Shown here one piece after another: positions 2,827 through 62,270 of a stretch of 64,000 nucleotides of DNA. A model generated the notes under the pieces. It saw only the letters and a list, made by a program, of their open reading frames with translations. It was not told where the DNA came from and did not search any database. Both the position numbers and the translations under genes were made by a program. Source of the DNA: Minisyncoccia bacterium (GTDB lineage: Bacteria > Patescibacteriota > Minisyncoccia > Phycocordibacterales > UBA6065); assembly GCA_044233485.1 (NCBI GenBank), contig JBIIJY010000003.1:32481-96480 (forward strand), read 5' to 3'. Positions within the stretch are counted from its first letter, which is position 1, and every line of letters begins with the position of its first letter.

Positions 2827-4359
2827 ATGAAACAAACACCTATTTCACCTGTAGTTCTCGTCATTCTTGACGGATGGGGACATCGAGATGACGCCACTCA
2901 CAACGCCATTAAACAGTCAAAAACCCCAGTATTTGACTCACTGTGGCAGAAGTATCCGCACACGCTGTTAAAAGCCTCTGGTCTCGCAGTCGGACTTCCT
3001 GAAGGACAAATGGGAAATAGTGAGATCGGGCATACTACAATCGGCGCCGGCGCAGTCCTCGACACAGATCTTGTGCGTATTAAAAAGTCTATTGATAGTG
3101 GTGAATTTTATATAAACCCCGCTCTTGTAGCTGTGTTTGACCATGTTAAGAAATACAACTCCACTCTCCACGTTCAAGGTCTGGTCGGCACCGGTGGAGT
3201 TCACGCACACAGCGACCACCTGATCGCCATTCTTGAAGCCGCAAAACGAAATGGGGTTGCCAAAGTAGCCCTCCACCTCTTCACGGACGGACGAGATACG
3301 GCACCACAGAGTGCGGGTGCATTCTTGAAAGAAATTGAGTCAGCGATCGAGCGCATCGGTGTAGGCTTTATCGCATCAATGTCTGGACGATACTTTGCCA
3401 TGGACCGTGATCGTAACTACGATCGCATCGCCAAAACAGAAGAAGCTCTCTTTGAGTGCAAAGGCAATGTCTGTACCATCTCTCCCAGTGCTTTTGTCGA
3501 AAACCTCTATAAAGAAGGCAAGATAGATGAACTCCTTGAGCCCATGGTGTGTGCAAATCCATTTGGCACTGGTTGCAAGATCGAAAAAAATGACGCTGTA
3601 TTCTTCTTTAATTTCCGAGCCGACCGGGCGCGCCAGCTCTCAGAGAAAATTCTTGAGAAGACTGGGCCGATGAATCTTGGTTTTGGTACGTTGACTGAGT
3701 ACTGTAAAGATTATGTATGCCATGTCGCCTTTCCGCCACTTGAAATCAAGGCCACTCTGGCAAAACAAATTTCTGAAGCCGGACTCACCCAGGCACATAT
3801 CGCCGAGACAGAGAAATTTCCTCATGCCACCTACTTCTTGAATGGCGGTGTCGAGAAACCTTACCCAGGTGAAAAGCATATTCTCCTCCATTCACATAAA
3901 GGCGCGCATCAGGAAGAGATTTTTACGCATGATATGAAGCCTGAGATGCAGGCAGTGGAGATAGCGGAGAAAGCGGTCGAGGAGGTTAACGCTGGAGCGA
4001 ACTTTATCTTCATCAATATCGCGAACGCAGATATGGTTGGCCATACGGCAAATGTCCCAGCGATTATCACCTCAGTCGAAACTGCCGACCGAGCTCTCGG
4101 GATGATCACTGACGCAGTGCGAGCACGTGGAGGTATTTGTATCATTACCGCTGACCACGGTAATGCAGAAGTAAACATAGACCCAGAGACCGGAAAGAAG
4201 CACACCTCGCACACCACAAACCCAGTCCCTGCAATCGTAACTCGCGAAGGAATCACACTGAAGGAAAATAAAGGACTTGCGGATATTGCACCAACCGTAC
4301 TTACACTTCTCGGTGTTACTCAACCAAAGGAAATGACCGGTGAGTCAATCATCAATTAA
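2827..4359 (+). CDS. gpmI: 2,3-bisphosphoglycerate-independent phosphoglycerate mutase
   Basis: 510 aa. Contains VVLVILDGWGHRDD, MGNSEIGHTTIGAG and ITADHGNAE, the motifs of iPGM. Confidence 0.96.
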   Translation: MKQTPISPVVLVILDGWGHRDDATHNAIKQSKTPVFDSLWQKYPHTLLKASGLAVGLPEGQMGNSEIGHTTIGAGAVLDTDLVRIKKSIDSGEFYINPALVAVFDHVKKYNSTLHVQGLVGTGGVHAHSDHLIAILEAAKRNGVAKVALHLFTDGRDTAPQSAGAFLKEIESAIERIGVGFIASMSGRYFAMDRDRNYDRIAKTEEALFECKGNVCTISPSAFVENLYKEGKIDELLEPMVCANPFGTGCKIEKNDAVFFFNFRADRARQLSEKILEKTGPMNLGFGTLTEYCKDYVCHVAFPPLEIKATLAKQISEAGLTQAHIAETEKFPHATYFLNGGVEKPYPGEKHILLHSHKGAHQEEIFTHDMKPEMQAVEIAEKAVEEVNAGANFIFINIANADMVGHTANVPAIITSVETADRALGMITDAVRARGGICIITADHGNAEVNIDPETGKKHTSHTTNPVPAIVTREGITLKENKGLADIAPTVLTLLGVTQPKEMTGESIIN

Positions 4360-48814: not shown

Positions 48815-50248
48815 TTATTGTATACGAGGAAAGAGTATCGGCTTTGTCTGCGCGGTAAATGACTCAACGAGTTTTTTATGAGTCTCAGGAAGAAGTGGCT
48901 CAAGGAGTGCGGTGATTTCGGCTAGGGTGTGAAGGTACGCTACAATGTCAGCAGATGCTCCCTCTGGGTCTGTTTTGATCCGTTTAAATGGCTCGGTGGT
49001 CTGAATAGCTTTATCTGTCTGCCCGATAAGCTCAAACACACAGTCGAATGCTCGCTTCACTTCAAATCGCTCGAGAGCCTCACTAAACTGGGGATACCGC
49101 TTTGAGACTTCTGCAAATGAGGGAACTGCTGGTATTGCCACCGTATAAGAAAGTGCCATCGCGAAGAGACGACTAGCCAAATTACCAAGACCGTTTACAA
49201 GTCCTGTCGTGTACGCACGATGGAACAGATCAAGTGTGCACGGACTATCTTCAAAAGTTGAGAGTTCCCGCAGCAAGTAATATCTGACAGCATCTGTGCC
49301 GTATTTTTTCACAAGATCTATCGGATCAATCGCATTGCCAAGACTCTTACTCATCTTGACCCCACCTTCGGCGGTCACGAAACCATCGACCACAATATGC
49401 CTTGAAAGTGGCAACCCCACCGAAAGGAGCATCGCTTGCCACATCGATGACTGCTGACGTAGATTATCTTTTCCACAATACTGAACCATCGGTGACCATT
49501 TCTCAAAACGATTCAGGTCATCCGGCCAACCGATTGCGTCAATATAGCTCGTCAACGCATCAAACCAGACATACATCACATGATCTTTATCATCTGGTAC
49601 ACTCACTCCCCAAGGCATTTTTGACTTCAAGCGTGAAATAGAAAAATCTTGGAGACCACGTTTAGTAAACTCGATAATTTCTTTTTGTCGCTCAGACGGT
49701 ATGACAAAATCGGGTGTCTTCTGATAATACTCAAGGAGTGGTTCTGCGAATCGAGAATATCTAAAGAAATAGTTCTCTTCCGATATGAGCTCGAGTTCCC
49801 GATCCTGATGCAGAGGACATTTACCATTGACGAGCTCGCTTTCAGTACGTTCAAGCTCACAACCGACACAGTACTTAGTTGTATAGTTTTTCTTATAGAT
49901 ATCCCCTTGTGCCATAGAGCGACGCCAAAACTCTTGCGCAACGAGCCGATGGCGCGGGTCAGTTGTCCGACAAAACGAAGTATATGAAATTCCAAGTAGT
50001 GCGTGGACTTCTTTAAACTTCTCCGCATATTCATCAACGTACTTCTGCACGTCGAGCCCTAGTTCGCGCGCTTTAGTATAGACTTTCGTCCCATGTTCAT
50101 CGGTGCCGGTATTGAAAAATACCTCAAAACCCTGAAGACGTTTGAATCGCGCAATACTATCAGCCCGGACGAATTCAAGAGCGTGGCCAACATGAGCTTG
50201 AGCGTTTACATAGGGAAGAGTAGTTGTAATGTAGAAAGTCTTTTTCAC
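48815..50248 (-). CDS. metG: methionine--tRNA ligase
   Basis: 477 aa with a GTG start. HIGH-type AHVGHALEF, CxxC knuckle region (KYCVGCE...GKCPLH) and KMSKSLGN. Confidence 0.95.
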   Translation of the reverse strand: MKKTFYITTTLPYVNAQAHVGHALEFVRADSIARFKRLQGFEVFFNTGTDEHGTKVYTKARELGLDVQKYVDEYAEKFKEVHALLGISYTSFCRTTDPRHRLVAQEFWRRSMAQGDIYKKNYTTKYCVGCELERTESELVNGKCPLHQDRELELISEENYFFRYSRFAEPLLEYYQKTPDFVIPSERQKEIIEFTKRGLQDFSISRLKSKMPWGVSVPDDKDHVMYVWFDALTSYIDAIGWPDDLNRFEKWSPMVQYCGKDNLRQQSSMWQAMLLSVGLPLSRHIVVDGFVTAEGGVKMSKSLGNAIDPIDLVKKYGTDAVRYYLLRELSTFEDSPCTLDLFHRAYTTGLVNGLGNLASRLFAMALSYTVAIPAVPSFAEVSKRYPQFSEALERFEVKRAFDCVFELIGQTDKAIQTTEPFKRIKTDPEGASADIVAYLHTLAEITALLEPLLPETHKKLVESFTAQTKPILFPRIQ

Positions 50249-50275
50249 TTCTGTACGCTAACACAAAAGAATCGC

Positions 50276-51349
50276 CTACGCATCTTTCATTTTCTTCTTC
50301 TCTGACAAGTCATCGAGGAATTCAACGAGTACCGTTGAGAGTGGAATGGCGAGCAACATACCAATGAAGCCAGCGAGTTTTGCGCCAATTACGAGAGCCA
50401 AAATCACCACAACCGGTGAGAGTCCAGTAACCTTCTTCATCACGAGCGGATAGAAGAGATTACTCTCAAACTGATGTAGTACCATATAAAAACCCAAGAC
50501 GAGTAATCCTGAAGTTGTATTGCCATCGCCGAAAGCGGCCATTGTACCTGGAATAGCAGCGATCACCGGACCGAAAACAGGAATCAGTTCACAAACCCCA
50601 GCAAAGATTGCAAACAACAGAGCTCCTTCAACTTTAAAGATTGTCAGCACGACGTAGATCAGCACTCCCATAACTCCAGCCAAGACAAGCTGTCCTTGCA
50701 TCCACTGCCCTATCTTTCGACTTGAACGCTCCCAGAGGCTCACCACATAGTCCTCATAGTCTGCCGTCGTGACAATTCGTAGAAAACGAGCAACACCGTT
50801 TTGCTGTGCCGCCAAGTAAAAAGAAAGTACGGCAATAAGACCAAACCCTAGCACACCACCGAATAATCTCGAGAAGACAGCCAGTGCCCCTCCACTTCCA
50901 AGTCCGATTAAGTATTCATCGATTTGAAAAAAGAGATCCTGGATCGAGAACTTATCCCCAAAAAGACTCTCTGTGCTCGCTGGATCAAAGATAGTATCTT
51001 TTGCCGGATTCCAGAGCTCGAGATTGTCGATATAGGTCGGCGCAGTTGCCAAAAATGTTGAGGTGTCGGTAAGAAGTCGTGGAAGGAAATAATACGTGAG
51101 ACTCACTGCCAGACTAGCGATTACGCCGTACACCGCGATCACCGCAAACACTCTATTGAGAGAGATCCCAAAGAGCCGCGGCTTCATGAACAATTCGATA
51201 AATGGGTTCATGGCACTGGCGATGACAATAGAAGTCAAAACGACAATGACAATATCTCTCATCCAAAACATCAGAGCTGCCAATGCTATGAAAATGAGCG
51301 TCTTGGCAATCGAACCGGATGAGATTTGTATCGTAATAGTATTCTTCAT
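50276..51349 (-). CDS. AI-2E family transporter (PerM/UPF0118)
   Basis: 357 aa and polytopic. Contains ...ELIPVFGPVIAAIPG... and the C-terminal GMLLAIPL pattern typical of the family. Confidence 0.85.
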   Translation of the reverse strand: MKNTITIQISSGSIAKTLIFIALAALMFWMRDIVIVVLTSIVIASAMNPFIELFMKPRLFGISLNRVFAVIAVYGVIASLAVSLTYYFLPRLLTDTSTFLATAPTYIDNLELWNPAKDTIFDPASTESLFGDKFSIQDLFFQIDEYLIGLGSGGALAVFSRLFGGVLGFGLIAVLSFYLAAQQNGVARFLRIVTTADYEDYVVSLWERSSRKIGQWMQGQLVLAGVMGVLIYVVLTIFKVEGALLFAIFAGVCELIPVFGPVIAAIPGTMAAFGDGNTTSGLLVLGFYMVLHQFESNLFYPLVMKKVTGLSPVVVILALVIGAKLAGFIGMLLAIPLSTVLVEFLDDLSEKKKMKDA

Positions 51350-51400
51350 GCCTCTCTATCATACTATGAGAGACTTGAATATAGTACGCTCTGTGGAGAA

Positions 51401-52783
51401 TTAACTGAGTTTTTCTCGTAGATACTCCGAGAGTTTCTCGAGCGAAACTCGTTCTTGGACTCCTGTGTCTCGAAAACGAACCGTGACTCCTTCATTTTTC
51501 TCAATAGTATCAAAGTCAACCGTCACACAAAATGGTGTACCGATTTCATCCTGACGACGATAGCGCTTTCCAATACTTCCCGCTTCATCATAGAGCACCG
51601 CGCCAAACTCTTTCTTAAGCGTACTAAAAACTTCTCGGGCTTTTGAAACCAGTTCTGGCTTGTTCTTTAGAAGTGGAAATACTGCCACTTTAACTGGAGC
51701 GACGCGTGGAGAGAATGCGAGGTAGACACGTGGCTCACCTTCTACCACATCCTCACGATAGGCATCAGAAAATACAGCAAGTAGCAGACGACCAAGACCA
51801 AATGTTGGTTCGATGCAGTGTGGGAAGAAACGCTCCTTCGACTCTTCGTCAAAATACGTCAATGATGTACCAGAAGCCTCTGTGTGATTCTTCAAATCGT
51901 AATCCGTACGGTATGCGCAACCAAGAAGCTCTTTTTGGCCAAATGGAAAATCAAACTCATGATCGACACTGTGTTTTGAATAGTGCGCACGATCGGCTTC
52001 AGGAATTTCTACTTGATGTATCTTGCTTGAGGTTAAACCGAGATCTTGTTCCAAGAAAGCTCGCTGCTCCTGTAGAAAACCGTCAAAAACTGGCCGCCAA
52101 TTTTCTGGACGAACAAAGTATTCGATCTCCATTTGCTCAAGTTCTCGCACTCGGAAAATAAAATCTCGTGGAGCGATCTCGTTACGGAAGGCTTTTCCAA
52201 TCTGAGCCATACCAAAAGGCAACTTAGGGTGAAATGAATCGAGAACGTTTTTAAAGTTAACAAACATACCACCAGCCGTTTCTGGTCGTAGATACGTAAC
52301 CGACTCAGCATCAGCGACTGGCCCCACGTGAGTTGAGAGCATCATCTGGAAACGACGCACTTCTCCAAGTGGGTTGCCATCCGGACTTAAAATCTTTTTC
52401 TCTTTAATTACCGCATTCATACCTTCAAGCGTCATTCCTTTCACGTCGACACCCGCCTCTTCAAGAAGGTTATCAGCTCGAAATCGCTTTCCAGTCTTTT
52501 TATCTTCCACAAGCGGGTCAGTAAACGTGTCCACGTGACCACTCGCCTTCCAGACATTTTGATTCATCAAAATAGACGCGTCCATTCCATATACATCCTC
52601 TCGGTCGAGCACAAAACGCTTCCACCAGAGATTTTCAATATTTTTCTTGAGGGCGACACCGAGAGGTGCGTAGTCCCACGTACCAGCAAGACCACCATAG
52701 ATCTCCGAACCCTGGTAAATGAAGCCACGACGCTTCGCCAGAGAGATTAATTTTTCCATCCGATTATCCTGTGATGTATTCAT
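51401..52783 (-). CDS. glyQS: glycine--tRNA ligase (alpha2 homodimeric type)
   Basis: 460 aa. Contains KRRGFIYQGSEIYGGLAGTWDYAPLGV, class II motifs (FRNEIAPR, GLGRLLLA) and a C-terminal anticodon-binding domain. Confidence 0.95.
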   Translation of the reverse strand: MNTSQDNRMEKLISLAKRRGFIYQGSEIYGGLAGTWDYAPLGVALKKNIENLWWKRFVLDREDVYGMDASILMNQNVWKASGHVDTFTDPLVEDKKTGKRFRADNLLEEAGVDVKGMTLEGMNAVIKEKKILSPDGNPLGEVRRFQMMLSTHVGPVADAESVTYLRPETAGGMFVNFKNVLDSFHPKLPFGMAQIGKAFRNEIAPRDFIFRVRELEQMEIEYFVRPENWRPVFDGFLQEQRAFLEQDLGLTSSKIHQVEIPEADRAHYSKHSVDHEFDFPFGQKELLGCAYRTDYDLKNHTEASGTSLTYFDEESKERFFPHCIEPTFGLGRLLLAVFSDAYREDVVEGEPRVYLAFSPRVAPVKVAVFPLLKNKPELVSKAREVFSTLKKEFGAVLYDEAGSIGKRYRRQDEIGTPFCVTVDFDTIEKNEGVTVRFRDTGVQERVSLEKLSEYLREKLS

Positions 52784-52787
52784 AGTA

Positions 52788-54704
52788 TTACTGTTTTACA
52801 ACCTCATCCCCCGCACGATACCCAGGATCGGTTGTAATACGTGTAGTAAGATTAACTTTTTTGTCGCTCAATGCAACCTGTGTGCGATGATCCACTCCTT
52901 TGAGTTCGATTTGAGTCACCAGATCCGGAACCTGCCCCACCTGATTCACACTCGCCTTAAGCCCGACCTGGAAAGATACCGTCCGAGCTGGCTTACCAAA
53001 CCCTACCCCTGGTTCAAGGGTGCCAATATTCCAGATCACTTCACCTGTACGCTCATTGAATGTCAGTGGTTCATTTTCAGGCAGTCGAAGATCCTTCCAC
53101 TTTACATACGTCGGTAAAATTCCACGAACCACCACATCGTCAGACTGATTTCGAGTATTCGTCACTGTCCAGACGACAGTATACGTTGTCTCTTTATCTG
53201 CCTGAGGTGGAATTACACCACTCTGTACAAATGGGGTAGTTGCTCGAGTCGCTCGTGAAGCGAGAGCCAGTTCTGAGACAAGCTGAACACGTCGTGAGAC
53301 TACCGAATTGAGTGCCACTGGAGCTCCTGATTCATCAGAGCGATTCCCCCGAACACTGATCTCAATAACGAAGGGTTGATAGATTGAATCTGCCAAATCA
53401 CGCGGCACAGTGACATTGAAGTTTAGCTGACCTTGGTCTTGAGGGTTGATAGTGACAAACTCGGGCACACTTCGATTGTTCCATGTAATGACCCCTCGAG
53501 TTGAGTCGTAGTAACCATTTGAATCGGCAACGACTTGACGCTTATCGAGTCCCGGACCAGAGATTCGTAACTCGACCACCGCATCAGCGATTCGAGTCTC
53601 TGAAGTGCTCTGCCAGTTGATCACTCCTCGAATCGTCTCACCACGACGTGCAGAATAATCACTTGAGCTTTCGTCACCATTCAAAGCGAGACTGACATCG
53701 AGAAACGGACGGTCGATCTCTTGCGTATCTTTTCGCACAGCGAGCAATGCCCCTATTTCTTTTTGATCACGCGCAGAGGCCGTACCGACAGAGAATCCAA
53801 ACGTTCGCACATCAGCGTCTTGTCCGATCACTACCCCACGCAGTTTAATTGTCTTTTTTGAACCAGGGGCAAGGGTACCGATTTCCCAGACATCTGAACC
53901 ATATGTCGGGAGCGGATTAGCCGAGGTGAATTTAAATCCAAAAGGATACTCTATCTGCAAAAGCAGACCCGGGAGTGGTTGATTAGTATTTGATTCTACG
54001 GTGACCGTGATTTCCTGCTCTTGCCCTGAATTCACCCGCTCAAGAATATCCGCACTCACCGTCAGCGGCACTGTTCCGATCGAGATTGGATACTGATACG
54101 ACTTCTCAAAAATTGCATTAGAGCCTGGCACTCGATACTCAAGCGTGAATCGAATTGTCAGCGTAGAGTTCTGTGCACCAAAGATGCGCGCCTGAATGTT
54201 CTTGCGAACTTCTTTTTGCGCCAGGACAGTTCCGATATCAATTTTCTCTCGAGCCAATTCAGCATTGCTTGAATCAGCTTTTTTGGTGCCATTAGGAAAA
54301 TCTACTCTCATACTTGAAAAGATGAGAGCTGAATTATTCTTATTCTGGACACTGATATCGAATGAAGAGATGTCACCCGCCCCGACAGCTTTCGGACCAA
54401 TTACATTAATGATTATATTGTCGACCGAGACGAAATTTTTATCTTGATAGATCTTGTAACCGAAATAGCCAACCGAGAGAATACAGGCAATGAGAGCAAA
54501 GTAAAACAGCGCTTTGAGAAAATGATGCTTGGGAGCATGATCGTAGGGAGAATCTTCTTTCGGGAGCGGAGACTCGTCCCATGCATTAATAACCAATGGC
54601 TCGTCGAGGTGAACCTGACGTTTTGAATCGCGCTTTATCTGATGCTCAGGTGAATGAATTCGTCCATCAAGCATATCAAGTCGACTTGGTTTCTTTTCTT
54701 CCAT
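52788..54704 (-). CDS. membrane-anchored hypothetical protein with several beta-sandwich-like modules
   Basis: 638 aa. A charged N-terminus is followed by one TM segment (FLKALFYFALIACILSVGYFGY). The long extracytoplasmic region is made of repeated beta-rich units of roughly 100 aa. No family recognised with confidence. Confidence 0.7.
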   Translation of the reverse strand: MEEKKPSRLDMLDGRIHSPEHQIKRDSKRQVHLDEPLVINAWDESPLPKEDSPYDHAPKHHFLKALFYFALIACILSVGYFGYKIYQDKNFVSVDNIIINVIGPKAVGAGDISSFDISVQNKNNSALIFSSMRVDFPNGTKKADSSNAELAREKIDIGTVLAQKEVRKNIQARIFGAQNSTLTIRFTLEYRVPGSNAIFEKSYQYPISIGTVPLTVSADILERVNSGQEQEITVTVESNTNQPLPGLLLQIEYPFGFKFTSANPLPTYGSDVWEIGTLAPGSKKTIKLRGVVIGQDADVRTFGFSVGTASARDQKEIGALLAVRKDTQEIDRPFLDVSLALNGDESSSDYSARRGETIRGVINWQSTSETRIADAVVELRISGPGLDKRQVVADSNGYYDSTRGVITWNNRSVPEFVTINPQDQGQLNFNVTVPRDLADSIYQPFVIEISVRGNRSDESGAPVALNSVVSRRVQLVSELALASRATRATTPFVQSGVIPPQADKETTYTVVWTVTNTRNQSDDVVVRGILPTYVKWKDLRLPENEPLTFNERTGEVIWNIGTLEPGVGFGKPARTVSFQVGLKASVNQVGQVPDLVTQIELKGVDHRTQVALSDKKVNLTTRITTDPGYRAGDEVVKQ

Positions 54705-54709
54705 AGGTA

Positions 54710-55246
54710 TTAGTATACTATCGCGAGTTCCTGCAATCTACGAGTAAGATGCTCTGTATAACGCACCTTAACCTCTGGCGTTTCGGCCAGAAGGTCTTTA
54801 AGTGAATGTGACTGATACTGTTCCATAAAGCCAAGCAAGGACAGTACGCGGAGCGTGAGGGCTCGATCGACGAAGCTACTCGACTCAGGAGAACAGAGAG
54901 CGCTCGCTGCTGAGAACTCATCAAAAATCTCTCGGAGTTTTTCTTCACGTACAATCAATTTTGTAATTGCCAGCGTCGCCAGTGAATACGGAACGCGCAA
55001 CCCACTCTCTGGCGCGACTCGTTCTATCCCGGTCAGACGCCAGGTATTCTTCCCTTTTACAAGTGAGAGGGAGAGTTTTACCCCAGAGACAAGGTGCATT
55101 CTATTTTTTGAAGCGAGTTTGCGAATTCCACTCGCCACGACATAAATCACACCAAAACGATCTGTTAAAAAGCAGAGTTCTTTATCAGCTTCTCCGCGAG
55201 AGAATTCTCGGAGAAGAAAGGCGTGAGTTGTGTAGATTGTATACAC
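54710..55246 (-). CDS. recO: DNA repair protein RecO (short form)
   Basis: 178 aa with a GTG start. The N-terminal OB-fold pattern AFLLREFSRGEADKELCFLTDRFGVIYVVASGIRK..S.. fits RecO_N. No Cys-rich zinc-finger segment is present. Confidence 0.65.
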   Translation of the reverse strand: MYTIYTTHAFLLREFSRGEADKELCFLTDRFGVIYVVASGIRKLASKNRMHLVSGVKLSLSLVKGKNTWRLTGIERVAPESGLRVPYSLATLAITKLIVREEKLREIFDEFSAASALCSPESSSFVDRALTLRVLSLLGFMEQYQSHSLKDLLAETPEVKVRYTEHLTRRLQELAIVY

Positions 55247-55255
55247 TGCAAAATC

Positions 55256-58200
55256 TTAACGACCAAACTTCAATTCACTTTCTTCTAGATTCTCCATTTT
55301 GCCTTCCTCTACCTCGAGAGCGGTTACGAGTGTCACCTTCTGAATTTGTTGACGTATCTCGGTCGCTTGAAGCAATGTGTGCACTTCTGCTGGCACTACT
55401 GCTTTCAGTGTCACCTGATCTCGAATCGAGAAATTATTTTCTTTACGAGCATCTTGTACCAGACGGATGAACTCTCGCACAACCCCTTTTGCTTTAAGTT
55501 CTGGTGTCAATTTTGTTTCAAGTGCATACTCGGTGCCTTCATGTATTTCTTCAACATTGAGTTCAGCCTTGAGAATGTCTTTAAACTCTTGCGTGTACTC
55601 ACCAAATACCCCTTTCGGAATTGTGAATGATTCGAGCGGCTGACGAACATTGACTCCTGCCTGCTGACGGAGCTTGAGAGCATTGGTAATCACCTCGCGT
55701 AGAGACTTCATACCATCAAGGAGTGCCTGATCGTGGCTTGTGACACTATCCCACTCTTCAAGATGAATACTTTCAGAACCTCGGCCAATCTCGAAAGCGA
55801 GTGTCTCGGCAAAGAACGGCGCATACGGTGCGAGTAATTTGGCGATTGCATGTAGTACAAAGCGAGTCGTCTCTAGCGCTTCTCGACGATCTTCTACATC
55901 GTCACTCTTGAACCGCTCGCGACTGCGACGCGTGTACCAGGTAGAGACATCATCAACAAGCGTTGTCAGTTCTCGAACACCAACATCAAGAGTATACGAC
56001 TCAAGAGCATGTGTGATAGCTGCATGCGCTCCGCGAAGGCGTTCAATCATCCAGCGGTCGAGAATATGTGTTGTGTGAGCCTGTGCACTGATAGTCTCAT
56101 CAGCATAGAGCTTATAGAGAGTTAAGACATTTTCCAGACGATTTAAAACTTTGTTCTGGACTTCGGCTACTGATTTTTCAGAGAAATGTAGATCTTCCGC
56201 TGAAACAACCGGTGAACCAAGGAGGACAAGTCGCAGAGCGTCCATACTGTATGCTCGAATGACCTCGAGCGGGTCTGGATAGTTTTTGAGACTCTTGGAC
56301 ATTTTCTTACCATCTTCTGCCAACACAAGACCGTTCACAATCACGTTCTTAAATGGACTTCGTCCAAAGAGTGCTGTACCGAGCACAAGCAGAGCATAGA
56401 ACCAACCACGAGTCTGATCGAGTCCTTCAGCAATAAAGTCCGCCGGAAATCCCTTTCCTTGAGCTGGATCAAAAGCCATCGTCGGTGTTCCAGTAAAACA
56501 AGCCTCGCCGTACGGCATTGAACCAGATTCAAACCAACAATCAAAGACATCTGGCACTCGAGTCATCAACTTTCCTTTTGAATCAAGTATTTCAAGACCA
56601 TCGATATACGGTCGGTGAAAATCGATTTCGTATGAGGGGTTACGCGGAAGTTTTACACTGAGCACTTCTCGAACTTCAGCGTTACCAAATGGCGCAACGA
56701 GCTCATCAGTAACATGTCCGAGAAAATGACTTTGCAATACTCGTAGAGGTGTACCATGAGCAATAATCAAAACATTTTTGCCAAAAAACTTTTCTGAAAT
56801 ATCTTCTACAGCTGCAACCATACGAGCGCGCACTGCAGTCAGATTTTCCATATCAGGAAGCGTGTAGGTAAAGGCTTGCTTACGATGTGGAAACTGTGCG
56901 TGGAATTCTTCCCAGTTTTTCCCATGAAGGGCGCGAGCACCGAGTTCACCAAGTCGTGGATCAACAACGATATGTGCATCAGAAAGCCCGAGGACATCTT
57001 GCACCTCTTTAAATGTCTCCTGTGTGCGCACGAATGGAGACACCGCCACCACATCTATATGTTTACCTTTGAGTTTTTGAGCACTCAAGCGCACCTGGGC
57101 TACCCCTTCAGGAGTGAGGTGATCTGGCGCATTTGGATCAGTACTGACTTTATTCTGAAGATTACTTTCGGCTTGCCCGTGACGCATCAGATACAGCGTG
57201 TTGCGGACTTTTGAATGTGCCACAATATCTTCAACTGTACTGAGAACTTTTACTTCAGTACCATCTTCACTTTTCCATACCGGTAGTGGCGCCCCCCAGT
57301 ATCGAGTACGTGAGATTGCCCAATCGCGAGCACCCTGGAGCCACTTTCCAAAACGCCCTTCCCCCACATGAGAAGGCACCCAGCGTACATCTTTATTAGC
57401 AGCTACGAGCTCGTCTTTGAAAGATGTTACTTTCACAAACCAACTTGAGGCAGCGTAGTTTAGAAGCGGAGTCTCACAGCGCCAACAATGCGGATATGAG
57501 TGAACGAGTTTTTCCTTTGCGAAAAGCGCACCGTGCATATGAAGCCACTTGATGACTTCTACGTCTGTTTTCTGATGAGGATCCTTTTCCCCTGCATCAC
57601 CCTTCGGCTTTACATACAACCCGACGAAATCACGAACCTCGGGCTTGAAACGCCCGTCGACGCCGACATGCTGAATAAATGGCAGAGAGTGTTTTACACC
57701 GAGCTGATAGTCGTCTTCGCCATACCCAGGAGCGATGTGAACTACCCCGGTACCATCGTCAGTTGTAACGAAGTCTGCGGCATAGATTTTCCAGCCATTC
57801 TCGCGATTCTTGAGATTAGAATCCTGGGCGTAGTAATCGAAAACCGGCGCATATTTCTTACCAGTAAGAGCTAAACCCTTATACGTCTTTAGAATTTTGA
57901 AATCTTTCTTAAATAGCGTCTCGACGCGAGCTTGAGCAACAATATACTTTTCAGAACTACCAACTAACTCAACCTCTGCATAATCTATTTCAGAATTGAC
58001 CGCAAGAGCGACGTTACCAGGAAGTGTCCAAGGTGTGGTCGTCCAAGCAATGATAAAAGTCTGTGGTTCGTCGACCAGCGCAAATTTTACATACACTGAG
58101 ATATCAGTGATATCTTTGTACCCCTGATTCACCTCGAAGTTTGAAAGCGTTGTTCCACAACGTGGACACAAATGCATACTCTTGAATCCTTCATAGACTA

Positions 58201-58711
58201 ACCCCTTATCAAACAATGTTTTAAAGACCCACCAGACGGATTTGGTGTACTCAATGTCCATTGTCCGATAGTCATTCTCCATGTCTACAAAACGCCCAAA
58301 TCGCGGCACTTGCTCACGCCAAACTCCAGCGTATCGAAGCACTACCTCTCGAGCAGTTTCATTGAACTTCTGAATTCCAAACTGCTCAATGTCTTTTTTA
58401 CTCTTGAGTCCAAGCTCTTTCTCAACAAGGTTCTCTATCGGAAGCCCATGACAATCCCATCCCCATCGTCGAGGTACACGAAACCCACACATCGTCTTGT
58501 ACCGAGGAATGACATCTTTGATTGAGCCCGCCAAAATATGTCCATAATGAGGAGTACCTGAAGCAAAGGGTGGACCATCGAAGAAAATAAATTCTCCACG
58601 TGGAGCGTTTTTCTCCAAAGTCTTTTCGAAAATTCGATGCTGCTTCCAATGGGCGAGAGTTTTTTCTTCTCGTCGCGCCGTTTCGCTCATGTGTGGATTT
58701 GTATGTGACAT
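55256..58711 (-). CDS. ileS: isoleucine--tRNA ligase (type 2) carrying an inserted histidine-phosphatase domain
   Basis: 1151 aa. HIGH-type PHYGHIL, the CP1 editing region (TTTPWTLPGNVA), WAISRTRYWGAPLPVW, DCWFESGSMPYG and KMSKSLKN. Residues around 503-686 carry the RHG / SPFVRTQET / AHG motifs of the histidine phosphatase superfamily. Confidence 0.96.
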   Translation of the reverse strand: MSHTNPHMSETARREEKTLAHWKQHRIFEKTLEKNAPRGEFIFFDGPPFASGTPHYGHILAGSIKDVIPRYKTMCGFRVPRRWGWDCHGLPIENLVEKELGLKSKKDIEQFGIQKFNETAREVVLRYAGVWREQVPRFGRFVDMENDYRTMDIEYTKSVWWVFKTLFDKGLVYEGFKSMHLCPRCGTTLSNFEVNQGYKDITDISVYVKFALVDEPQTFIIAWTTTPWTLPGNVALAVNSEIDYAEVELVGSSEKYIVAQARVETLFKKDFKILKTYKGLALTGKKYAPVFDYYAQDSNLKNRENGWKIYAADFVTTDDGTGVVHIAPGYGEDDYQLGVKHSLPFIQHVGVDGRFKPEVRDFVGLYVKPKGDAGEKDPHQKTDVEVIKWLHMHGALFAKEKLVHSYPHCWRCETPLLNYAASSWFVKVTSFKDELVAANKDVRWVPSHVGEGRFGKWLQGARDWAISRTRYWGAPLPVWKSEDGTEVKVLSTVEDIVAHSKVRNTLYLMRHGQAESNLQNKVSTDPNAPDHLTPEGVAQVRLSAQKLKGKHIDVVAVSPFVRTQETFKEVQDVLGLSDAHIVVDPRLGELGARALHGKNWEEFHAQFPHRKQAFTYTLPDMENLTAVRARMVAAVEDISEKFFGKNVLIIAHGTPLRVLQSHFLGHVTDELVAPFGNAEVREVLSVKLPRNPSYEIDFHRPYIDGLEILDSKGKLMTRVPDVFDCWFESGSMPYGEACFTGTPTMAFDPAQGKGFPADFIAEGLDQTRGWFYALLVLGTALFGRSPFKNVIVNGLVLAEDGKKMSKSLKNYPDPLEVIRAYSMDALRLVLLGSPVVSAEDLHFSEKSVAEVQNKVLNRLENVLTLYKLYADETISAQAHTTHILDRWMIERLRGAHAAITHALESYTLDVGVRELTTLVDDVSTWYTRRSRERFKSDDVEDRREALETTRFVLHAIAKLLAPYAPFFAETLAFEIGRGSESIHLEEWDSVTSHDQALLDGMKSLREVITNALKLRQQAGVNVRQPLESFTIPKGVFGEYTQEFKDILKAELNVEEIHEGTEYALETKLTPELKAKGVVREFIRLVQDARKENNFSIRDQVTLKAVVPAEVHTLLQATEIRQQIQKVTLVTALEVEEGKMENLEESELKFGR

Positions 58712-58757
58712 AAAATAAATAAAAGAATAAGCCAGACGCGAGTGAGTCTGGCTTATC
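58712..58757 (-). terminator. intrinsic terminator immediately upstream of the ileS start codon (attenuator terminator, segments 3:4)
   Basis: Minus strand: GAUAAGCCAGAC (58757-58746), loop UCACUCGC, GUCUGGCUUAU (58737-58727), then UUCUUUUAUUUAUUUU running straight into the ileS ATG at 58711. Confidence 0.75.
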
Positions 58758-58769
58758 TTTTGAGGAATT

Positions 58770-58836
58770 AAGTCAAACTCACGAGGTACTACCCGTTACT
58801 AATTGCAATAGAAATTCGTGTACCTCGGTTTGACTT
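58770..58836 (-). promoter_or_regulatory. 17-bp leader hairpin (segments 1:2) of the ileS leader
   Basis: AAGUCAAAC+CGAGGUAC (58836-58820) pairs perfectly with GUACCUCG (58789-58782) and GUUUGACUU (58778-58770), with a 3-nt UGA bulge and a 30-nt loop. Confidence 0.6.
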
Positions 58837-58839
58837 CAT
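58789..58839 (-). CDS. candidate 16-aa leader peptide MKSNRGTRISIAISNG (three Ile codons)
   Basis: ATG at 58839-58837 and TAG at 58791-58789. Ile codons (all ATT) are at positions 9, 11 and 13, inside the loop of hairpin 1:2. The stop codon abuts segment 2. Translation is unproven. Confidence 0.4.
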   Translation of the reverse strand: MKSNRGTRISIAISNG

Positions 58840-58846
58840 GTGATGT

Positions 58847-58875
58847 ATAGTAATACGTCTCGGGTCTCTTTTCAA
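58847..58875 (-). promoter_or_regulatory. candidate promoter for the ileS leader
   Basis: TTGAAA (58875-58870), a 17-nt spacer, then TACTAT (58852-58847). The predicted start at about 58839-58840 is at or next to the leader-peptide ATG. Confidence 0.35.
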
Positions 58876-58876
58876 G

Positions 58877-60520
58877 CTACTTAAGTGTAGCGGTCCTACC
58901 AAGTACTGAACACTTACTCGTCATCAGCGCCCCGAAGCCTAGATACTCAGTCGCATAGTGGAGTCGCCCCTTGTAATTTGGGAGTGTCTTTTTATCAGCA
59001 GAAAATTCACTATCACCTTTCGATGCTGTGCTTGTGGCTGTGCATGAGGCAACAACATTCTTTTTCTCAATCTGTATTGAGTCAAAATAGAGGCGCGTGG
59101 TTGCTGCCGTGTCCCACTCTCCCGCCTTAAGACCAGTTCGTAGTGTCGTAATCTCTTCACTGCGGTTCTTCAGACGAGCTGGTATGGTACTAGTCGACTG
59201 ACCGACCACTTTAATGAACTCTTTGGTATCGAGATAGTATGCATTGAGTGAATTATCTAATGCTTTTTGAATACGAACTGTCCGAGCAGTATTTTCAGCT
59301 TCAGTTGGAATGATACGATCTGAAACTGCCAACAGTGGATTAACTGAAGCTACGCGGGCATACGCAAAATCAAGAATCGACAGACCGACAAAGGTGCTCG
59401 TCGGATGATCTGCGTCGGCTAGGACTTTTTCACCAAGCTCAATGAGATTTCGTGGGCCAGCGATAGCACCTTTGTAATTTTTCTTTGCCTGAAGATCGAT
59501 TGACTGAATGACGGCGAGTCGTACCGCATTGCCCACTTTACTGTATGAGCAACCTGTCAGAGCCACGTCGCAATAAAAACGAGCTCTCCCTTTCTGACCA
59601 ACGACTGCATTTATGTAGGCTCCATACTTACTGACAAGTGCCACCTGAGCTGGCGTTACCGTAGTACTCTCTTGAGTGATCTCACGCACAACCCTCTCCT
59701 CATCAGCTGTAAGATCCGGCAAACCCTTGAAGAGCTCATACACGTTCTCGGCCAATGGAACATTTGGCGAGGTCGTCGCTTTTATTCCTGAATCAGTAAT
59801 CGTGACTGTCGGAGTAGTTGATGCGAGTAATGTAGGTGAACGTCGTGGAGTGGTCGTCGGTAGTGGTACATTTAGAATCGGTTGCTCGAATTCACTCAAA
59901 TCAATTGGTTGCATGCTCTGGTATTTGTTCCAGGCAAATACTCCAGCAGTAACAAGAATACACACGACGATTACGATATACATCCACAAAGGATTCTTTG
60001 GTGGGTGTTGTGGAAGGGCTGCCTGTGAAGCTTCATTGGCCTTCAAGACATCTTTATTCACAATACGTGGACCGATAGTCGGTTCCGTGCTTGGCCCTGC
60101 TGGCTGAACTTTTGCAAATGGAGTTTGAAAAGCTGTCGGTTGTTTAACGGCTTCTTGCAAAGTAGTTCTAAAGGCACTGGCATTAAACTGACTCGCTGAT
60201 GCACCACCAAATCGTGCCTGGGTAGAATTAGCAACTTGAGTTTGGGGCATCTGCATAGCAGGAGATGCCACCTGTTTTGGTTGGGTGGTATTCCCTGATG
60301 TTTGAGCCTGAGGGGATACGACCGGTGAAGACGCTGGACTTGTCACTGGAGCGACTGGCTTGGCCGGCACCACTGGTGCAGGACCAACGAGTGGCTTGAG
60401 TGCCTCTTGAATATCTCCTTCTTGCCATCCAACCGCCTTAAGAGCAGTGTATATTTCTGTCTCAGCAATGCCGAGTGCGCGTTCTTGTGCAATATACGCT
60501 TTAAGTTCTGGAGTGATCAT
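58877..60520 (-). CDS. hypothetical bitopic membrane protein (small cytoplasmic N-domain, Pro/Ala/Gln-rich linker, one TM, large external domain)
   Basis: 547 aa. MITPELKAYIAQERALGIAETEIYTALKAVGWQEGDIQEAL is followed by a low-complexity stretch, then the TM segment LWMYIVIVVCILVTAGVFAW, then about 340 aa with no recognised family. Confidence 0.7.
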   Translation of the reverse strand: MITPELKAYIAQERALGIAETEIYTALKAVGWQEGDIQEALKPLVGPAPVVPAKPVAPVTSPASSPVVSPQAQTSGNTTQPKQVASPAMQMPQTQVANSTQARFGGASASQFNASAFRTTLQEAVKQPTAFQTPFAKVQPAGPSTEPTIGPRIVNKDVLKANEASQAALPQHPPKNPLWMYIVIVVCILVTAGVFAWNKYQSMQPIDLSEFEQPILNVPLPTTTPRRSPTLLASTTPTVTITDSGIKATTSPNVPLAENVYELFKGLPDLTADEERVVREITQESTTVTPAQVALVSKYGAYINAVVGQKGRARFYCDVALTGCSYSKVGNAVRLAVIQSIDLQAKKNYKGAIAGPRNLIELGEKVLADADHPTSTFVGLSILDFAYARVASVNPLLAVSDRIIPTEAENTARTVRIQKALDNSLNAYYLDTKEFIKVVGQSTSTIPARLKNRSEEITTLRTGLKAGEWDTAATTRLYFDSIQIEKKNVVASCTATSTASKGDSEFSADKKTLPNYKGRLHYATEYLGFGALMTSKCSVLGRTATLK

Positions 60521-60572
60521 ATTCTTCTATGGTATCACTCTCTCTAGAAAGCCGACTCGGATTTATCCCCAC

Positions 60573-62270
60573 CTACATTTGTTTAGGAACTTGAATACCT
60601 AACAAGTTGAGACCATGAGTCAGTACCTGTGCGACCGCTTGGGTGAGACGAAGTCTGTATCCAGTCACTTCTCCGGCTTCAAGGATTTTGTTTTGGGCAT
60701 AGAAAGCATTGAACTCTCGGGCAAGCTCGATCAAATACCCCGCGATAGTATGCGGTGAAAATTCTTCATACGCTCGCCGCGTAATCTGCGGATACGTTGC
60801 GATCAGACGTTCAAGATTGCCGATTTCAAGAGGAGGAACGACAGCTTCCGTTCCAGTAGCTTTTGCTAAAACCGACCGTGCTCGAACAACACTGTATTGA
60901 ATATACGGACCAGAGTCACCTTCAAACGCTATCGCCTTTTCTTCATCATAAATAATATCCGACCCTGGACTCGAGCGAAGGATGGTGTACTTGATTGCTC
61001 CGATACCAACTTTTTCACTCACCTCTTTTCGTGTCTGCTCGTCGTACGCACGCTCTGCTATTTTCTCATGAACCAACGCCTGCGCATCTTCGATCATTGA
61101 TTCTCCAGTGATGACATTGCCCGTTCGTGACGACATTTTACCTGAAGCGAAACGCATCATTCCGTGACCGATATGTTTAGTACGCTGCGCGATTTTAGAA
61201 TCTATCTCCGAGAGCGCCGAAAGGACTACCTTAAAATATTCGTTTTGCTCACTCGCTGTAATGATGATCGATTGCTCAAGCTCTGGATGTCGACGAAACT
61301 TCTCAGTGTTCAAACCAATCTCTTTTGCCTCATAGGTTGGGAGCCCAGTTGAGTTGATAAACACACGTGTGTGAAGACCATTCTTTTCACCTTTATACAC
61401 CACCGCCCCATCACTTTTTTCAAACACTCCAGTAGCAACATGAGCGAGGACAATTTCTTTTCCCGGAAATGAAATTTCACTCTCAAAAATATATTCATTA
61501 AAAACAGTTCCTACTTTTTTGTAGATTTCCTCGAAGTGCTCTAAACTCCATCGCTTTCCAGTCTCGTAAATCTGTACGAGGTCTGCATCACTTTTCTCAA
61601 AGAGTTTTTTGTTTATTGAATCAATCTCGGCTTTTATCTCCGGAGACTGTTCATACTGAGCGGTTCCGTAGACGTACATCTTTCCAAGAAATCCGGTTCG
61701 GACGATAACCGGGTCGCTTTCTTGAGGTAGCTCTTGTTGATGCTTGGTAATTGCCCATACGGCTTTAGCAATATGTAACCCAATATCACTCGGGTAACAC
61801 ATTCGAATCATTTCTGCTCCAGCATTTTCAATGATACGAGAAATTGATTCGCCGAGAGCATTATTCATGAGGTGGCCGATATGGAGAGGCTTGAAGGCAT
61901 TTGGATCAGTGTATTCAACTAAAACTTTTTTACCTGCCAGAATATCCAATGAGCCAAAATGTTCAGTCGTATTCAAAACAACGTCAGTATAAAAACGAGG
62001 TACGAGAAAAAGATTAATGAATCCTGGACCAGCAATCTCAATCTTACTAATAAGATCCGCTGAATTGGTCTGAAGTTCAGTGACTATCTGCTCTGCTAAC
62101 TCTCGTGGATTTTTCTTAAGTTCCTTAGCGTGGACGAGGGCGACGTTGGTGGCAAACTCGCCATGAGTTTCAATGACTGAACGCTCGATTGAAAAAGCTT
62201 TCGGGGATTCGATTCCGAGCGACCGAAGCGTCTGACTGATTCGTTTAATAAGCGTCGACTGTATATCCAT
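60573..62270 (-). CDS. argS: arginine--tRNA ligase
   Basis: 565 aa. Contains the Arg_tRNA_synt_N region, HIGH-type PLHIGHLMN and the DALR anticodon-binding domain, and ends in the characteristic terminal M. Confidence 0.96.
   Translation of the reverse strand: MDIQSTLIKRISQTLRSLGIESPKAFSIERSVIETHGEFATNVALVHAKELKKNPRELAEQIVTELQTNSADLISKIEIAGPGFINLFLVPRFYTDVVLNTTEHFGSLDILAGKKVLVEYTDPNAFKPLHIGHLMNNALGESISRIIENAGAEMIRMCYPSDIGLHIAKAVWAITKHQQELPQESDPVIVRTGFLGKMYVYGTAQYEQSPEIKAEIDSINKKLFEKSDADLVQIYETGKRWSLEHFEEIYKKVGTVFNEYIFESEISFPGKEIVLAHVATGVFEKSDGAVVYKGEKNGLHTRVFINSTGLPTYEAKEIGLNTEKFRRHPELEQSIIITASEQNEYFKVVLSALSEIDSKIAQRTKHIGHGMMRFASGKMSSRTGNVITGESMIEDAQALVHEKIAERAYDEQTRKEVSEKVGIGAIKYTILRSSPGSDIIYDEEKAIAFEGDSGPYIQYSVVRARSVLAKATGTEAVVPPLEIGNLERLIATYPQITRRAYEEFSPHTIAGYLIELAREFNAFYAQNKILEAGEVTGYRLRLTQAVAQVLTHGLNLLGIQVPKQM

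Follow-up and report, generated by a model that had tools for sequence, protein, structure and literature searches.

Why a bacterial isoleucyl-tRNA synthetase (IleRS) should carry an unrelated second enzyme within its catalytic core is the question raised by an ileS gene of a Minisyncoccia bacterium (GenBank assembly GCA_044233485.1, contig JBIIJY010000003.1, positions 32,481 to 96,480 of the forward strand; this whole stretch of 64,000 nucleotides is the window referred to below). Aminoacyl-tRNA synthetases are among the best-studied enzymes, and their bacterial domain plan is thought to be nearly fixed. An earlier note, made from the letters of the window alone, had proposed that a complete histidine phosphatase (HP) domain with intact catalytic residues interrupts this synthetase, and had taken the organism to be a member of the candidate phyla radiation (CPR, or Patescibacteria), as it is. 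Comparative sequence analysis, described here, establishes that IleRS and valyl-tRNA synthetase (ValRS) are coupled across Patescibacteria, physically or genetically, to a complete, predicted HP that is under purifying selection.

A histidine phosphatase domain within isoleucyl-tRNA synthetase

The gene and the parts of its product are as follows, in the order of the protein.

55256..58711, minus strand: ileS, type-2 IleRS with the insert, 1151 amino acids (aa), identified from the open reading frame (ORF) list, TIGR00392 and solved relatives
57224..58711, minus strand: IleRS N-terminal part, aa 1-496
58538-58552, minus strand: HIGH motif, here PHYGH, aa 54-58
aa 182-185 and aa 409-412, N-terminal part: zinc-site cysteines CPRC and CWRC
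aa 223-231, minus strand: CP1 editing domain signature WTTTPWTLP
aa 464-473, minus strand: motif A, WAISRTRYWG
56624..57223, minus strand: inserted PhoE-like HP domain, aa 497-696, borders from alignment
57176..57184, minus strand: RHG (R510, H511, G512), H511 being the predicted phospho-accepting nucleophile
57023..57040, minus strand: SPFVRT (aa 558-563), R562 being the second phosphate-binding arginine; S558 and R562 invariant
56939..56953, minus strand: LGELG (aa 587-591), E589 being the predicted general acid, invariant
56747..56761, minus strand: AHGTP (aa 651-655), H652 being the second catalytic histidine, invariant
55259..56623, minus strand: IleRS C-terminal part, aa 697-1151
aa 724-730, minus strand: motif B, DCWFESG
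56291-56305, minus strand: KMSKS, aa 803-807
aa 885-1027: anticodon-binding domain PF08264, from Pfam
C-terminal part: DUF5915 C-terminal domain, from Pfam

As judged from profile and structural matches, the ORF at 55256..58711 is a bona fide type-2 IleRS, the eukaryote-like, mupirocin-resistant type. It scores 835.4 bits against the IleRS equivalog TIGR00392 (cut-off 621.4), in two matched stretches that flank the insert, and its closest solved relatives are the IleRS of human, yeast, P. megaterium (IleRS2) and T. thermophilus; Foldseek comparison of its predicted structure with IleRS2 (8c9d) gave template-modelling (TM) scores of 0.72-0.80. The AlphaFold2 model of the full 1151-residue protein has a predicted local distance difference test (pLDDT) value of 90.9 and a predicted TM (pTM) score of 0.84, with pLDDT of 88-97 over the insert. 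Public gene callers start the protein at M8 (nucleotide (nt) 58690), giving 1144 aa, and no second ileS was found in the window. Membership of the MupA and MupB families (NF000257 and NF000258) was rejected at 645 and 692 bits against a cut-off of 1900, as was that of ileS_w_GNAT (NF040702) at 333 bits against 1999, the Pfam scan giving no GNAT domain.

The Pfam family His_Phos_1 (PF00300) matches residues 506-670 (E=1e-32, 113.8 bits against a cut-off of 21.7, profile positions 1-165 of 194) and splits the tRNA-synt_1 match in two, which is the outcome that the earlier note had forecast for such a search. In alignment with human cytoplasmic IleRS (9w01_B), query residues 496 and 697 correspond to chain residues 488 and 498, and the insert occupies the place of a linker of about nine residues between WxISRxRxWG and DxWFESG; an insert-less CPR IleRS confirms these borders (query 8-496 = 1-491; query 697-1118 = 501-918). 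The insertion thus lies, as claimed, in the catalytic core: it falls within the latter half of the Rossmann fold, at a place that in insert-less enzymes is occupied by the short linker alone. The span first proposed for the domain, 56654-57205, does cover its core (aa 503-686), and fell short only in extent, the full insert being larger (aa 497-696, nt 56624-57223). All four motifs (RHG, SPFVRT, LGELG and AHGTP) were found in the expected order, and the catalytic residues are intact: R510, H511, G512, R562, E589 and H652 are invariant across 120 homologues, with N517 kept in more than 90% of them.

The predicted structure of the insert has the alpha/beta/alpha fold of phosphoglycerate mutases, with PhoE, PspA, GpgP, CobC and a riboflavin-pathway HFP as its nearest structures; in fold comparison 182 of its 200 residues align with PhoE, against 138 with SixA, and the model indicates that the PhoE-type cap is retained. 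The insert reaches the cut-off of no named NCBIfam subfamily (dPGM, SixA, CobC, PspA, GpmB). Assignment to dPGM (TIGR01258) was rejected at 38.5 bits against 81.7, with all PRK dPGM models far under their cut-offs; the phosphoglycerate mutase of the cell is, as the earlier note held, the unrelated gpmI (iPGM), already present in the window at 2827..4359 on the plus strand. The SixA phosphohistidine phosphatase model (TIGR00249) gave no full-length match above cut-off, and the alpha-ribazole phosphatase CobC (TIGR03162; 64.9 against 162.9) and phosphoserine phosphatase PspA (NF045917; 46 against 350) were likewise rejected. By profile, catalytic residues and predicted fold the insert is a member of His_Phos_1 outside every characterised subfamily.

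The insert is a separate domain in a surface loop of the Rossmann-fold catalytic domain of IleRS, in the small subdomain between WxISRxRxWG and DxWFESG (referred to below as the motif A-B loop), which in many relatives is a Cys4 knuckle. The four cysteines of this hosting subdomain (57224-57322 and 56522-56623) are lost here, the sequence reading PVWKSEDG...LDSKGKLM as against PVWRCDKC...FECGCGG in the insert-less IleRS of L058 (L058 4572-7454), and a CxxC...CxC pattern is kept in some fused relatives (L014, L050, L074). In part of the clade the phosphatase may serve as a structural stand-in for the zinc knuckle.

Assembly and selection

An assembly chimera or mis-join that placed a phosphatase gene inside ileS, the check on which was suggested in the earlier note, is effectively excluded, and we regard it as extremely improbable. 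The identical ORF (protein P0001) occurs on at least six contigs from three samples, in which it was assembled independently and of which one contig is 681 kb long, and a homologue at 90% identity (genome L161) has the same architecture and the same neighbours. The same junctions recur in many diverged fused homologues from many Patescibacteria lineages: PF00133 and PF00300 are both found in 120 of the 120 best database homologues (51-56% identity), which are labelled Taylorbacteria, Paceibacterota, Parcubacteria or Patescibacteria. GC content is continuous over both insert junctions, and no second histidine phosphatase or other paralogue of the insert was found in the window.

Compared with the 90% homologue, the rate of non-synonymous substitution (dN) is 0.051 for the insert and 0.051 for the N-terminal IleRS part, and its ratio to the synonymous rate (dN/dS) is about 0.02-0.04, with synonymous sites saturated. 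Across the 120 homologues the insert diverges faster than the IleRS core (34-43% as against 51-56% identity).

Distribution and the argS-HP-ileS operon

A scan of one genome per GTDB species with an alignment of the insert gave at least 148 confirmed matches. Amongst the best 80 of these loci the domain lies within an IleRS ORF of about 1100-1290 aa (shorter at contig ends) in about 74, and simple motif patterns place WxISR about 45 residues upstream of the domain in most of these ORFs and DxWFxS downstream in around two thirds. Lineages that appear in the record titles are Paceibacterota, Taylorbacteria, Nomurabacteria, Zambryskibacteria, Colwellbacteria, Doudnabacteria and Parcubacteria; a large number of the records are binned metagenome-assembled genomes (MAGs) labelled 'Saccharibacteria', a label that we judge untrustworthy. 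A HMMER search of 1.84 billion representative proteins yielded 343 clusters at 50% identity (E <=1e-10). In public databases the proteins go by generic names ('class I tRNA ligase family protein', 'isoleucyl-tRNA synthetase', 'histidine phosphatase family protein', 'PhoE'). The survey of CPR genomes proposed in the earlier note thus finds the fusion to be common in Patescibacteria MAGs and not unique to the source genome.

Three of the best 80 loci encode stand-alone proteins instead of a fusion, and in the two that are closely related to the insert (L058, L070) argS is followed by a phosphatase gene of about 190 aa and then by an insert-less ileS. Used as seeds in a metagenome scan, these two stand-alone HPs gave 80 loci, in which ileS follows on the same strand in 55 of the 58 loci with at least 1.5 kb downstream (median gap 16 nt) and argS precedes in all 57 with at least 1 kb upstream (median gap 7 nt). 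The partner IleRS falls into two types, of 25 loci each, which share 37% identity and both pass TIGR00392, and two ArgRS types combine differently with these; the argS-HP-ileS order has therefore survived the replacement or deep divergence of both neighbours. Amongst fused lineages argS lies upstream of ileS in 46 of 62 loci. Fusion in one lineage and tight adjacency in another is, at the level of gene arrangement, the classical Rosetta-stone signal of a functional link. In a neighbour-joining tree (single distant outgroup, similarity-selected sample) the stand-alone proteins form a tight clade among more diverse fused domains.

The stand-alone HPs (loci L081-L160; proteins P0121-P0240) are basic, with a net charge per 100 aa of +6.3, as against +0.7 for the neighbouring IleRS and +2.4 for ArgRS, the fused HP domains being approximately neutral; typically they carry +12 to +24 in about 190 aa. 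This charge is weakly consistent with a free protein that might bind a polyanion (e.g. tRNA) or an acidic partner on its own. A WPEKF motif is common to the stand-alone HPs and has no counterpart in the fused domains, and two of them (P0235, P0237) are annotated by JGI as 'isoleucyl-tRNA synthetase'.

Extra copies, other sites and valyl-tRNA synthetase

The insertion is not confined to one copy, one site or one synthetase. Two tandem HP domains occupy the same IleRS loop in P0289 and P0311, and in other IleRS (P0319, P0334, P0354, P0363) the copies lie between motif B and KMSKS or downstream of KMSKS; such IleRS variants have two to three copies, at three different sites. P0362 is a complete ValRS of 1079 aa with an HP domain between WCISRQ (429) and DTWFSS (661), a site equivalent to that in IleRS. 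In the ValRS P0287 the domain follows motif B, P0264 has four copies, one of them upstream of motif A, and P0448 is a full-length ValRS of 1750 aa with three. Of the 120 best ValRS relatives of P0362, about 60 contain PF00300 (labelled Falkowbacteria, Komeilibacteria and Peregrinibacteria), whereas close relatives of about 870 aa are without it. The ValRS clusters with the domain have one to four copies, frequently in the loop that corresponds to the one used in IleRS. Every extra copy examined keeps RHG or RHA, with RHG in all copies of P0264 and P0448. No ArgRS-phosphatase fusion was seen among 390 proteins classified by domain architecture, a search that was not exhaustive.

Two CPR ValRS, P0419 and P0496, have a serine hydrolase (PF06821) in the same motif A-B loop, P0419 also matching the alpha/beta-hydrolase family PF00561; it seems that accessory hydrolases of various kinds can dock at this loop. 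A further IleRS-like protein, P0359 (1066 aa), has an IS200-like Y1 transposase domain in frame within its editing domain (aa 340-461) and the phosphatase at the usual site, with a C-terminal GNAT domain replacing all that follows motif B, KMSKS included. Possible origins of this protein are a paralogue in decay, a gene that has split, or a scaffold put to new use.

Possible function of the inserted phosphatase

Because HP genes stand in argS-HP-ileS operons, HP copies occur at several sites and ValRS has acquired insertions as well, we read the HP as a dedicated accessory phosphatase of IleRS and ValRS. It is likely, in our judgement, to be a PhoE-like enzyme of catalytically competent type, which would remove phosphate from something that the synthetase handles. 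On mechanism the earlier note had put forward only speculation, labelled as such. By analogy with the family, a phosphomonoester would bind R510, R562 and H652, H511 would attack phosphorus to give a phospho-histidine intermediate, and E589 would protonate the leaving group, after which water would free the phosphate. The leading candidate for the substrate is a tRNA 3' end that is 2'/3'-phosphorylated or derived from a cyclic phosphate, which the HP might heal before or during charging by the class I enzyme; class I synthetases acylate the 2'-OH. That the substrate is such an end is a guess in which we place low confidence. More broadly, and still tentatively, the HP, built in or encoded in the operon, could provide Patescibacteria IleRS and ValRS with a third activity beside synthesis and editing, repairing or unlocking a phosphorylated partner. 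This partner could be a tRNA CCA end with a 2'/3'-phosphate or a pyrophosphate, or else the KMSKS loop in phosphorylated form. If so, aminoacylation would include a quality-control or anti-toxin step not known before.

Several considerations weigh against these proposals. We know of no His_Phos_1 member that acts on RNA ends, and the PhoE-type cap that the model retains is typical of small-molecule phosphatases and weakly favours a ligand that is small or single-stranded rather than a folded protein. A general enzyme for healing tRNA ends has no obvious need to sit on IleRS and ValRS only, and two of the insertion sites, placed before strands beta4 and beta5 from Rossmann-fold topology, may face the side opposite the catalytic cleft. 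The syntenic loci are phylogenetically related, and their counts are accordingly not independent events, whilst the charge contrast of the stand-alone HPs is modest against the background of other ORFs (+3.6, standard deviation 3.6).

The same capped PhoE-like fold, and its proximity to PhoE, PspA, GpgP, CobC and the riboflavin-pathway HFP, would also suit a small-molecule phosphatase acting on a nucleotide by-product (AMP, pAp, pyrophosphate (PPi) or an Ap4A-derived compound) or on a phosphorylated inhibitor of IleRS or ValRS, the latter amounting to local target protection. Enzymes of immunity against aminoacyl-nucleotide antibiotics include acetyltransferases, serine peptidases and phosphoramidases, and the phosphatase, the serine hydrolase in the same CPR ValRS loop (P0419, P0496) and the GNAT domain of certain IleRS variants (NF040702; P0359) together resemble that set of chemistries. 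Defence of this kind is further favoured by the MccH-like phosphoramidases that Parcubacteria encode, one of which is active against microcin C (PMC7157772). Nevertheless a small-molecule substrate does not specifically explain why only Ile and Val should be concerned, nor does it account for the strong basic charge of the stand-alone HP. To our knowledge, moreover, the known IleRS and ValRS inhibitors and aminoacyl-adenylate mimics contain no phosphomonoester, nor are histidine phosphatases known to us to cleave adenylate-type diesters or PPi, and we consider this explanation unlikely. The synthetase could alternatively be its own substrate, the HP removing phosphate from e.g. a KMSKS-loop serine and reversing a HipA-like toxin or a regulatory kinase: class I synthetases lose activity when HipA or HipT kinases phosphorylate their serines in the ATP-binding or KMSKS region, the variant insertion sites of P0319, P0334, P0354 and P0363 flank the KMSKS loop, and a synthetase that is near neutral or acidic could offer a docking surface to a basic stand-alone HP. 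The closest structures are, however, small-molecule enzymes whose cap is kept here, these genomes give no evidence of HipA-like or regulatory kinases, and tandem multiple copies are left unexplained, which makes self-dephosphorylation distinctly improbable.

A more prosaic account would make the HP an unrelated housekeeping phosphatase of PhoE, GpmB or phosphoserine-phosphatase type, co-expressed with the synthetase and then fused to it, with no mechanistic link to aminoacylation. The sequence is indeed generically PhoE-like and under every NCBIfam equivalog cut-off, and CPR genomes are streamlined with clustered translation genes (metG, glyS, ileS and argS lie within about 14 kb here), but to interrupt the catalytic core of an essential enzyme with an in-frame insert is a high price to pay for co-expression. 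Such an account also sits poorly with recurrence at three or more sites, in two synthetases and in up to four copies, and with a stand-alone gene that stays beside ileS across two IleRS types at 37% identity; we think it about as doubtful as self-dephosphorylation. Faster divergence of the fused domains than of the IleRS core might be expected of a non-catalytic pseudo-enzyme serving only as a structural or tRNA-binding spacer, yet none of the five catalytic residues varies across 120 homologues, every extra copy examined retains RHG or RHA and dN/dS is about 0.04, so that a pseudo-enzyme is highly improbable and, like an assembly artefact, effectively excluded.

Genomic neighbourhood and a candidate ileS leader

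The remaining features named in the text are listed below.

2827..4359, plus strand: gpmI (iPGM)
48815-50248, minus strand: metG
51401-52783, minus strand: glyS, dimeric GlyRS
54710-55246, minus strand, in the cluster: short RecO-N-only protein, 178 aa
58712-58876, minus strand: candidate structured 5' leader or attenuator of ileS, between the 547-aa ORF and the ileS start
58877-60520, minus strand: 547-aa ORF between argS and ileS, with no Pfam or NCBIfam match
60573..62270, minus strand: argS, 565 aa, upstream of ileS in the conserved argS-(HP)-ileS neighbourhood, with Pfam tRNA-synt_1d, DALR_1 and Arg_tRNA_synt_N

The four synthetase genes at 48815-62270 on the minus strand are interspersed with those for an AI-2E transporter, a DUF11 surface-type protein and the RecO-N protein. 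The 547-aa ORF has a Pro/Ala/Thr-rich region and a hydrophobic segment, is kept in the 90%-related genome L161 at the same position with 546 aa, and fills the slot that the stand-alone phosphatase takes in other lineages.

Within the candidate leader are a promoter-like site at 58875-58847 and a long stem formed by AAGUCAAACCGAGGUAC...GUACCUCGUGAGUUUGACUU, as well as a terminator-like hairpin of 12 bp (58757-58726) with a U-tract directly before the start codon. The minimum free energy of the leader is -45.9 kcal/mol (z=-6.3), and it shares 95% identity with its counterpart in a genome in which synonymous sites of ileS have reached saturation. A search for a T-box or other riboswitch in the leader gave no Rfam match at gathering score, the best having E=0.28. 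The stretch GGGUAGUACCUCG resembles GGGUGGUACCGCG, which we take to be the consensus of the T-box motif, with the CCA-pairing UGGN changed.

Implications and comparison with known systems

A whole bacterial radiation carries an unrelated, predicted second catalytic domain in the core of its IleRS or ValRS, or in the same operon, and keeps it by strong selection. This would mean that tRNA charging involves a phosphorylated intermediate, a damage product, a modification by a toxin or an inhibitor that has so far escaped recognition. At the least, the proteins constitute a putative new enzyme family with hundreds of members, and the Rosetta-stone link offers an annotation for about 450 CPR clusters (at 90% identity) of genes now named 'PhoE' or 'histidine phosphatase family protein'. 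Whole enzymes can be accommodated in the motif A-B loop of class Ia synthetases, a tolerance that may also be useful in engineering.

Domains inserted in or appended to synthetases are already known (CP1 editing, GNAT and the eukaryotic add-ons), and the present architecture is itself already in the sequence databases, where it is named only generically. In the full-text literature that we searched we found no description of an HP in the IleRS Rossmann fold, of its operon counterpart, of the multi-copy forms or of the ValRS form. The nearest relatives of the host enzyme, and its best matches in sequence and structure, are the type-2 IleRS of P. megaterium (IleRS2, 8c8u) and yeast (8wnd) together with T. 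thermophilus IleRS (1ile), which have the same full domain set, with HIGH, KMSKS and CP1. Where the present ORF has a phosphatase domain of 200 residues, the solved IleRS have about nine, and the cysteines of the small knuckle, kept in some relatives, are lost in the ORF.

Amongst IleRS with foreign domains, ileS_w_GNAT (NF040702) is similar in that an unrelated enzyme domain, recognised by curators, lies in frame within the synthetase; it differs in the domain and in the site, the gap in the profile mapping, on our reading of its coordinates, to the CP1 region rather than to the motif A-B loop. A second hydrolytic site in a tRNA-handling enzyme has functional analogues in the CP1 editing domain of IleRS, ValRS and LeuRS and in the HD domain of bacterial CCA-adding enzymes, which in E. 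coli has phosphatase and 2',3'-cyclic phosphodiesterase activities and can repair tRNA ends. The folds and chemistry of CP1 and of the HD phosphohydrolase are unrelated to those of the HP domain, and the likeness is one of analogy only.

For the phosphatase itself, the closest comparisons are with PhoE of Geobacillus (1h2e) and PspA of Hydrogenobacter (4ij5), both of branch 1 of the HP superfamily and 23-26% identical to the insert; these are free-standing enzymes, whereas the HP described here is inserted in a synthetase or fixed in an argS-HP-ileS operon. The best-scoring NCBIfam model for the insert, the Rv2228c-type RNase H / acid phosphatase (NF005567; 70.9 bits against a cut-off of 326), likewise joins a CobC/PhoE-like domain to a nucleic-acid enzyme, but there the two are fused end to end and the partner is a different enzyme, whilst in the Patescibacteria synthetases the phosphatase is an insertion.

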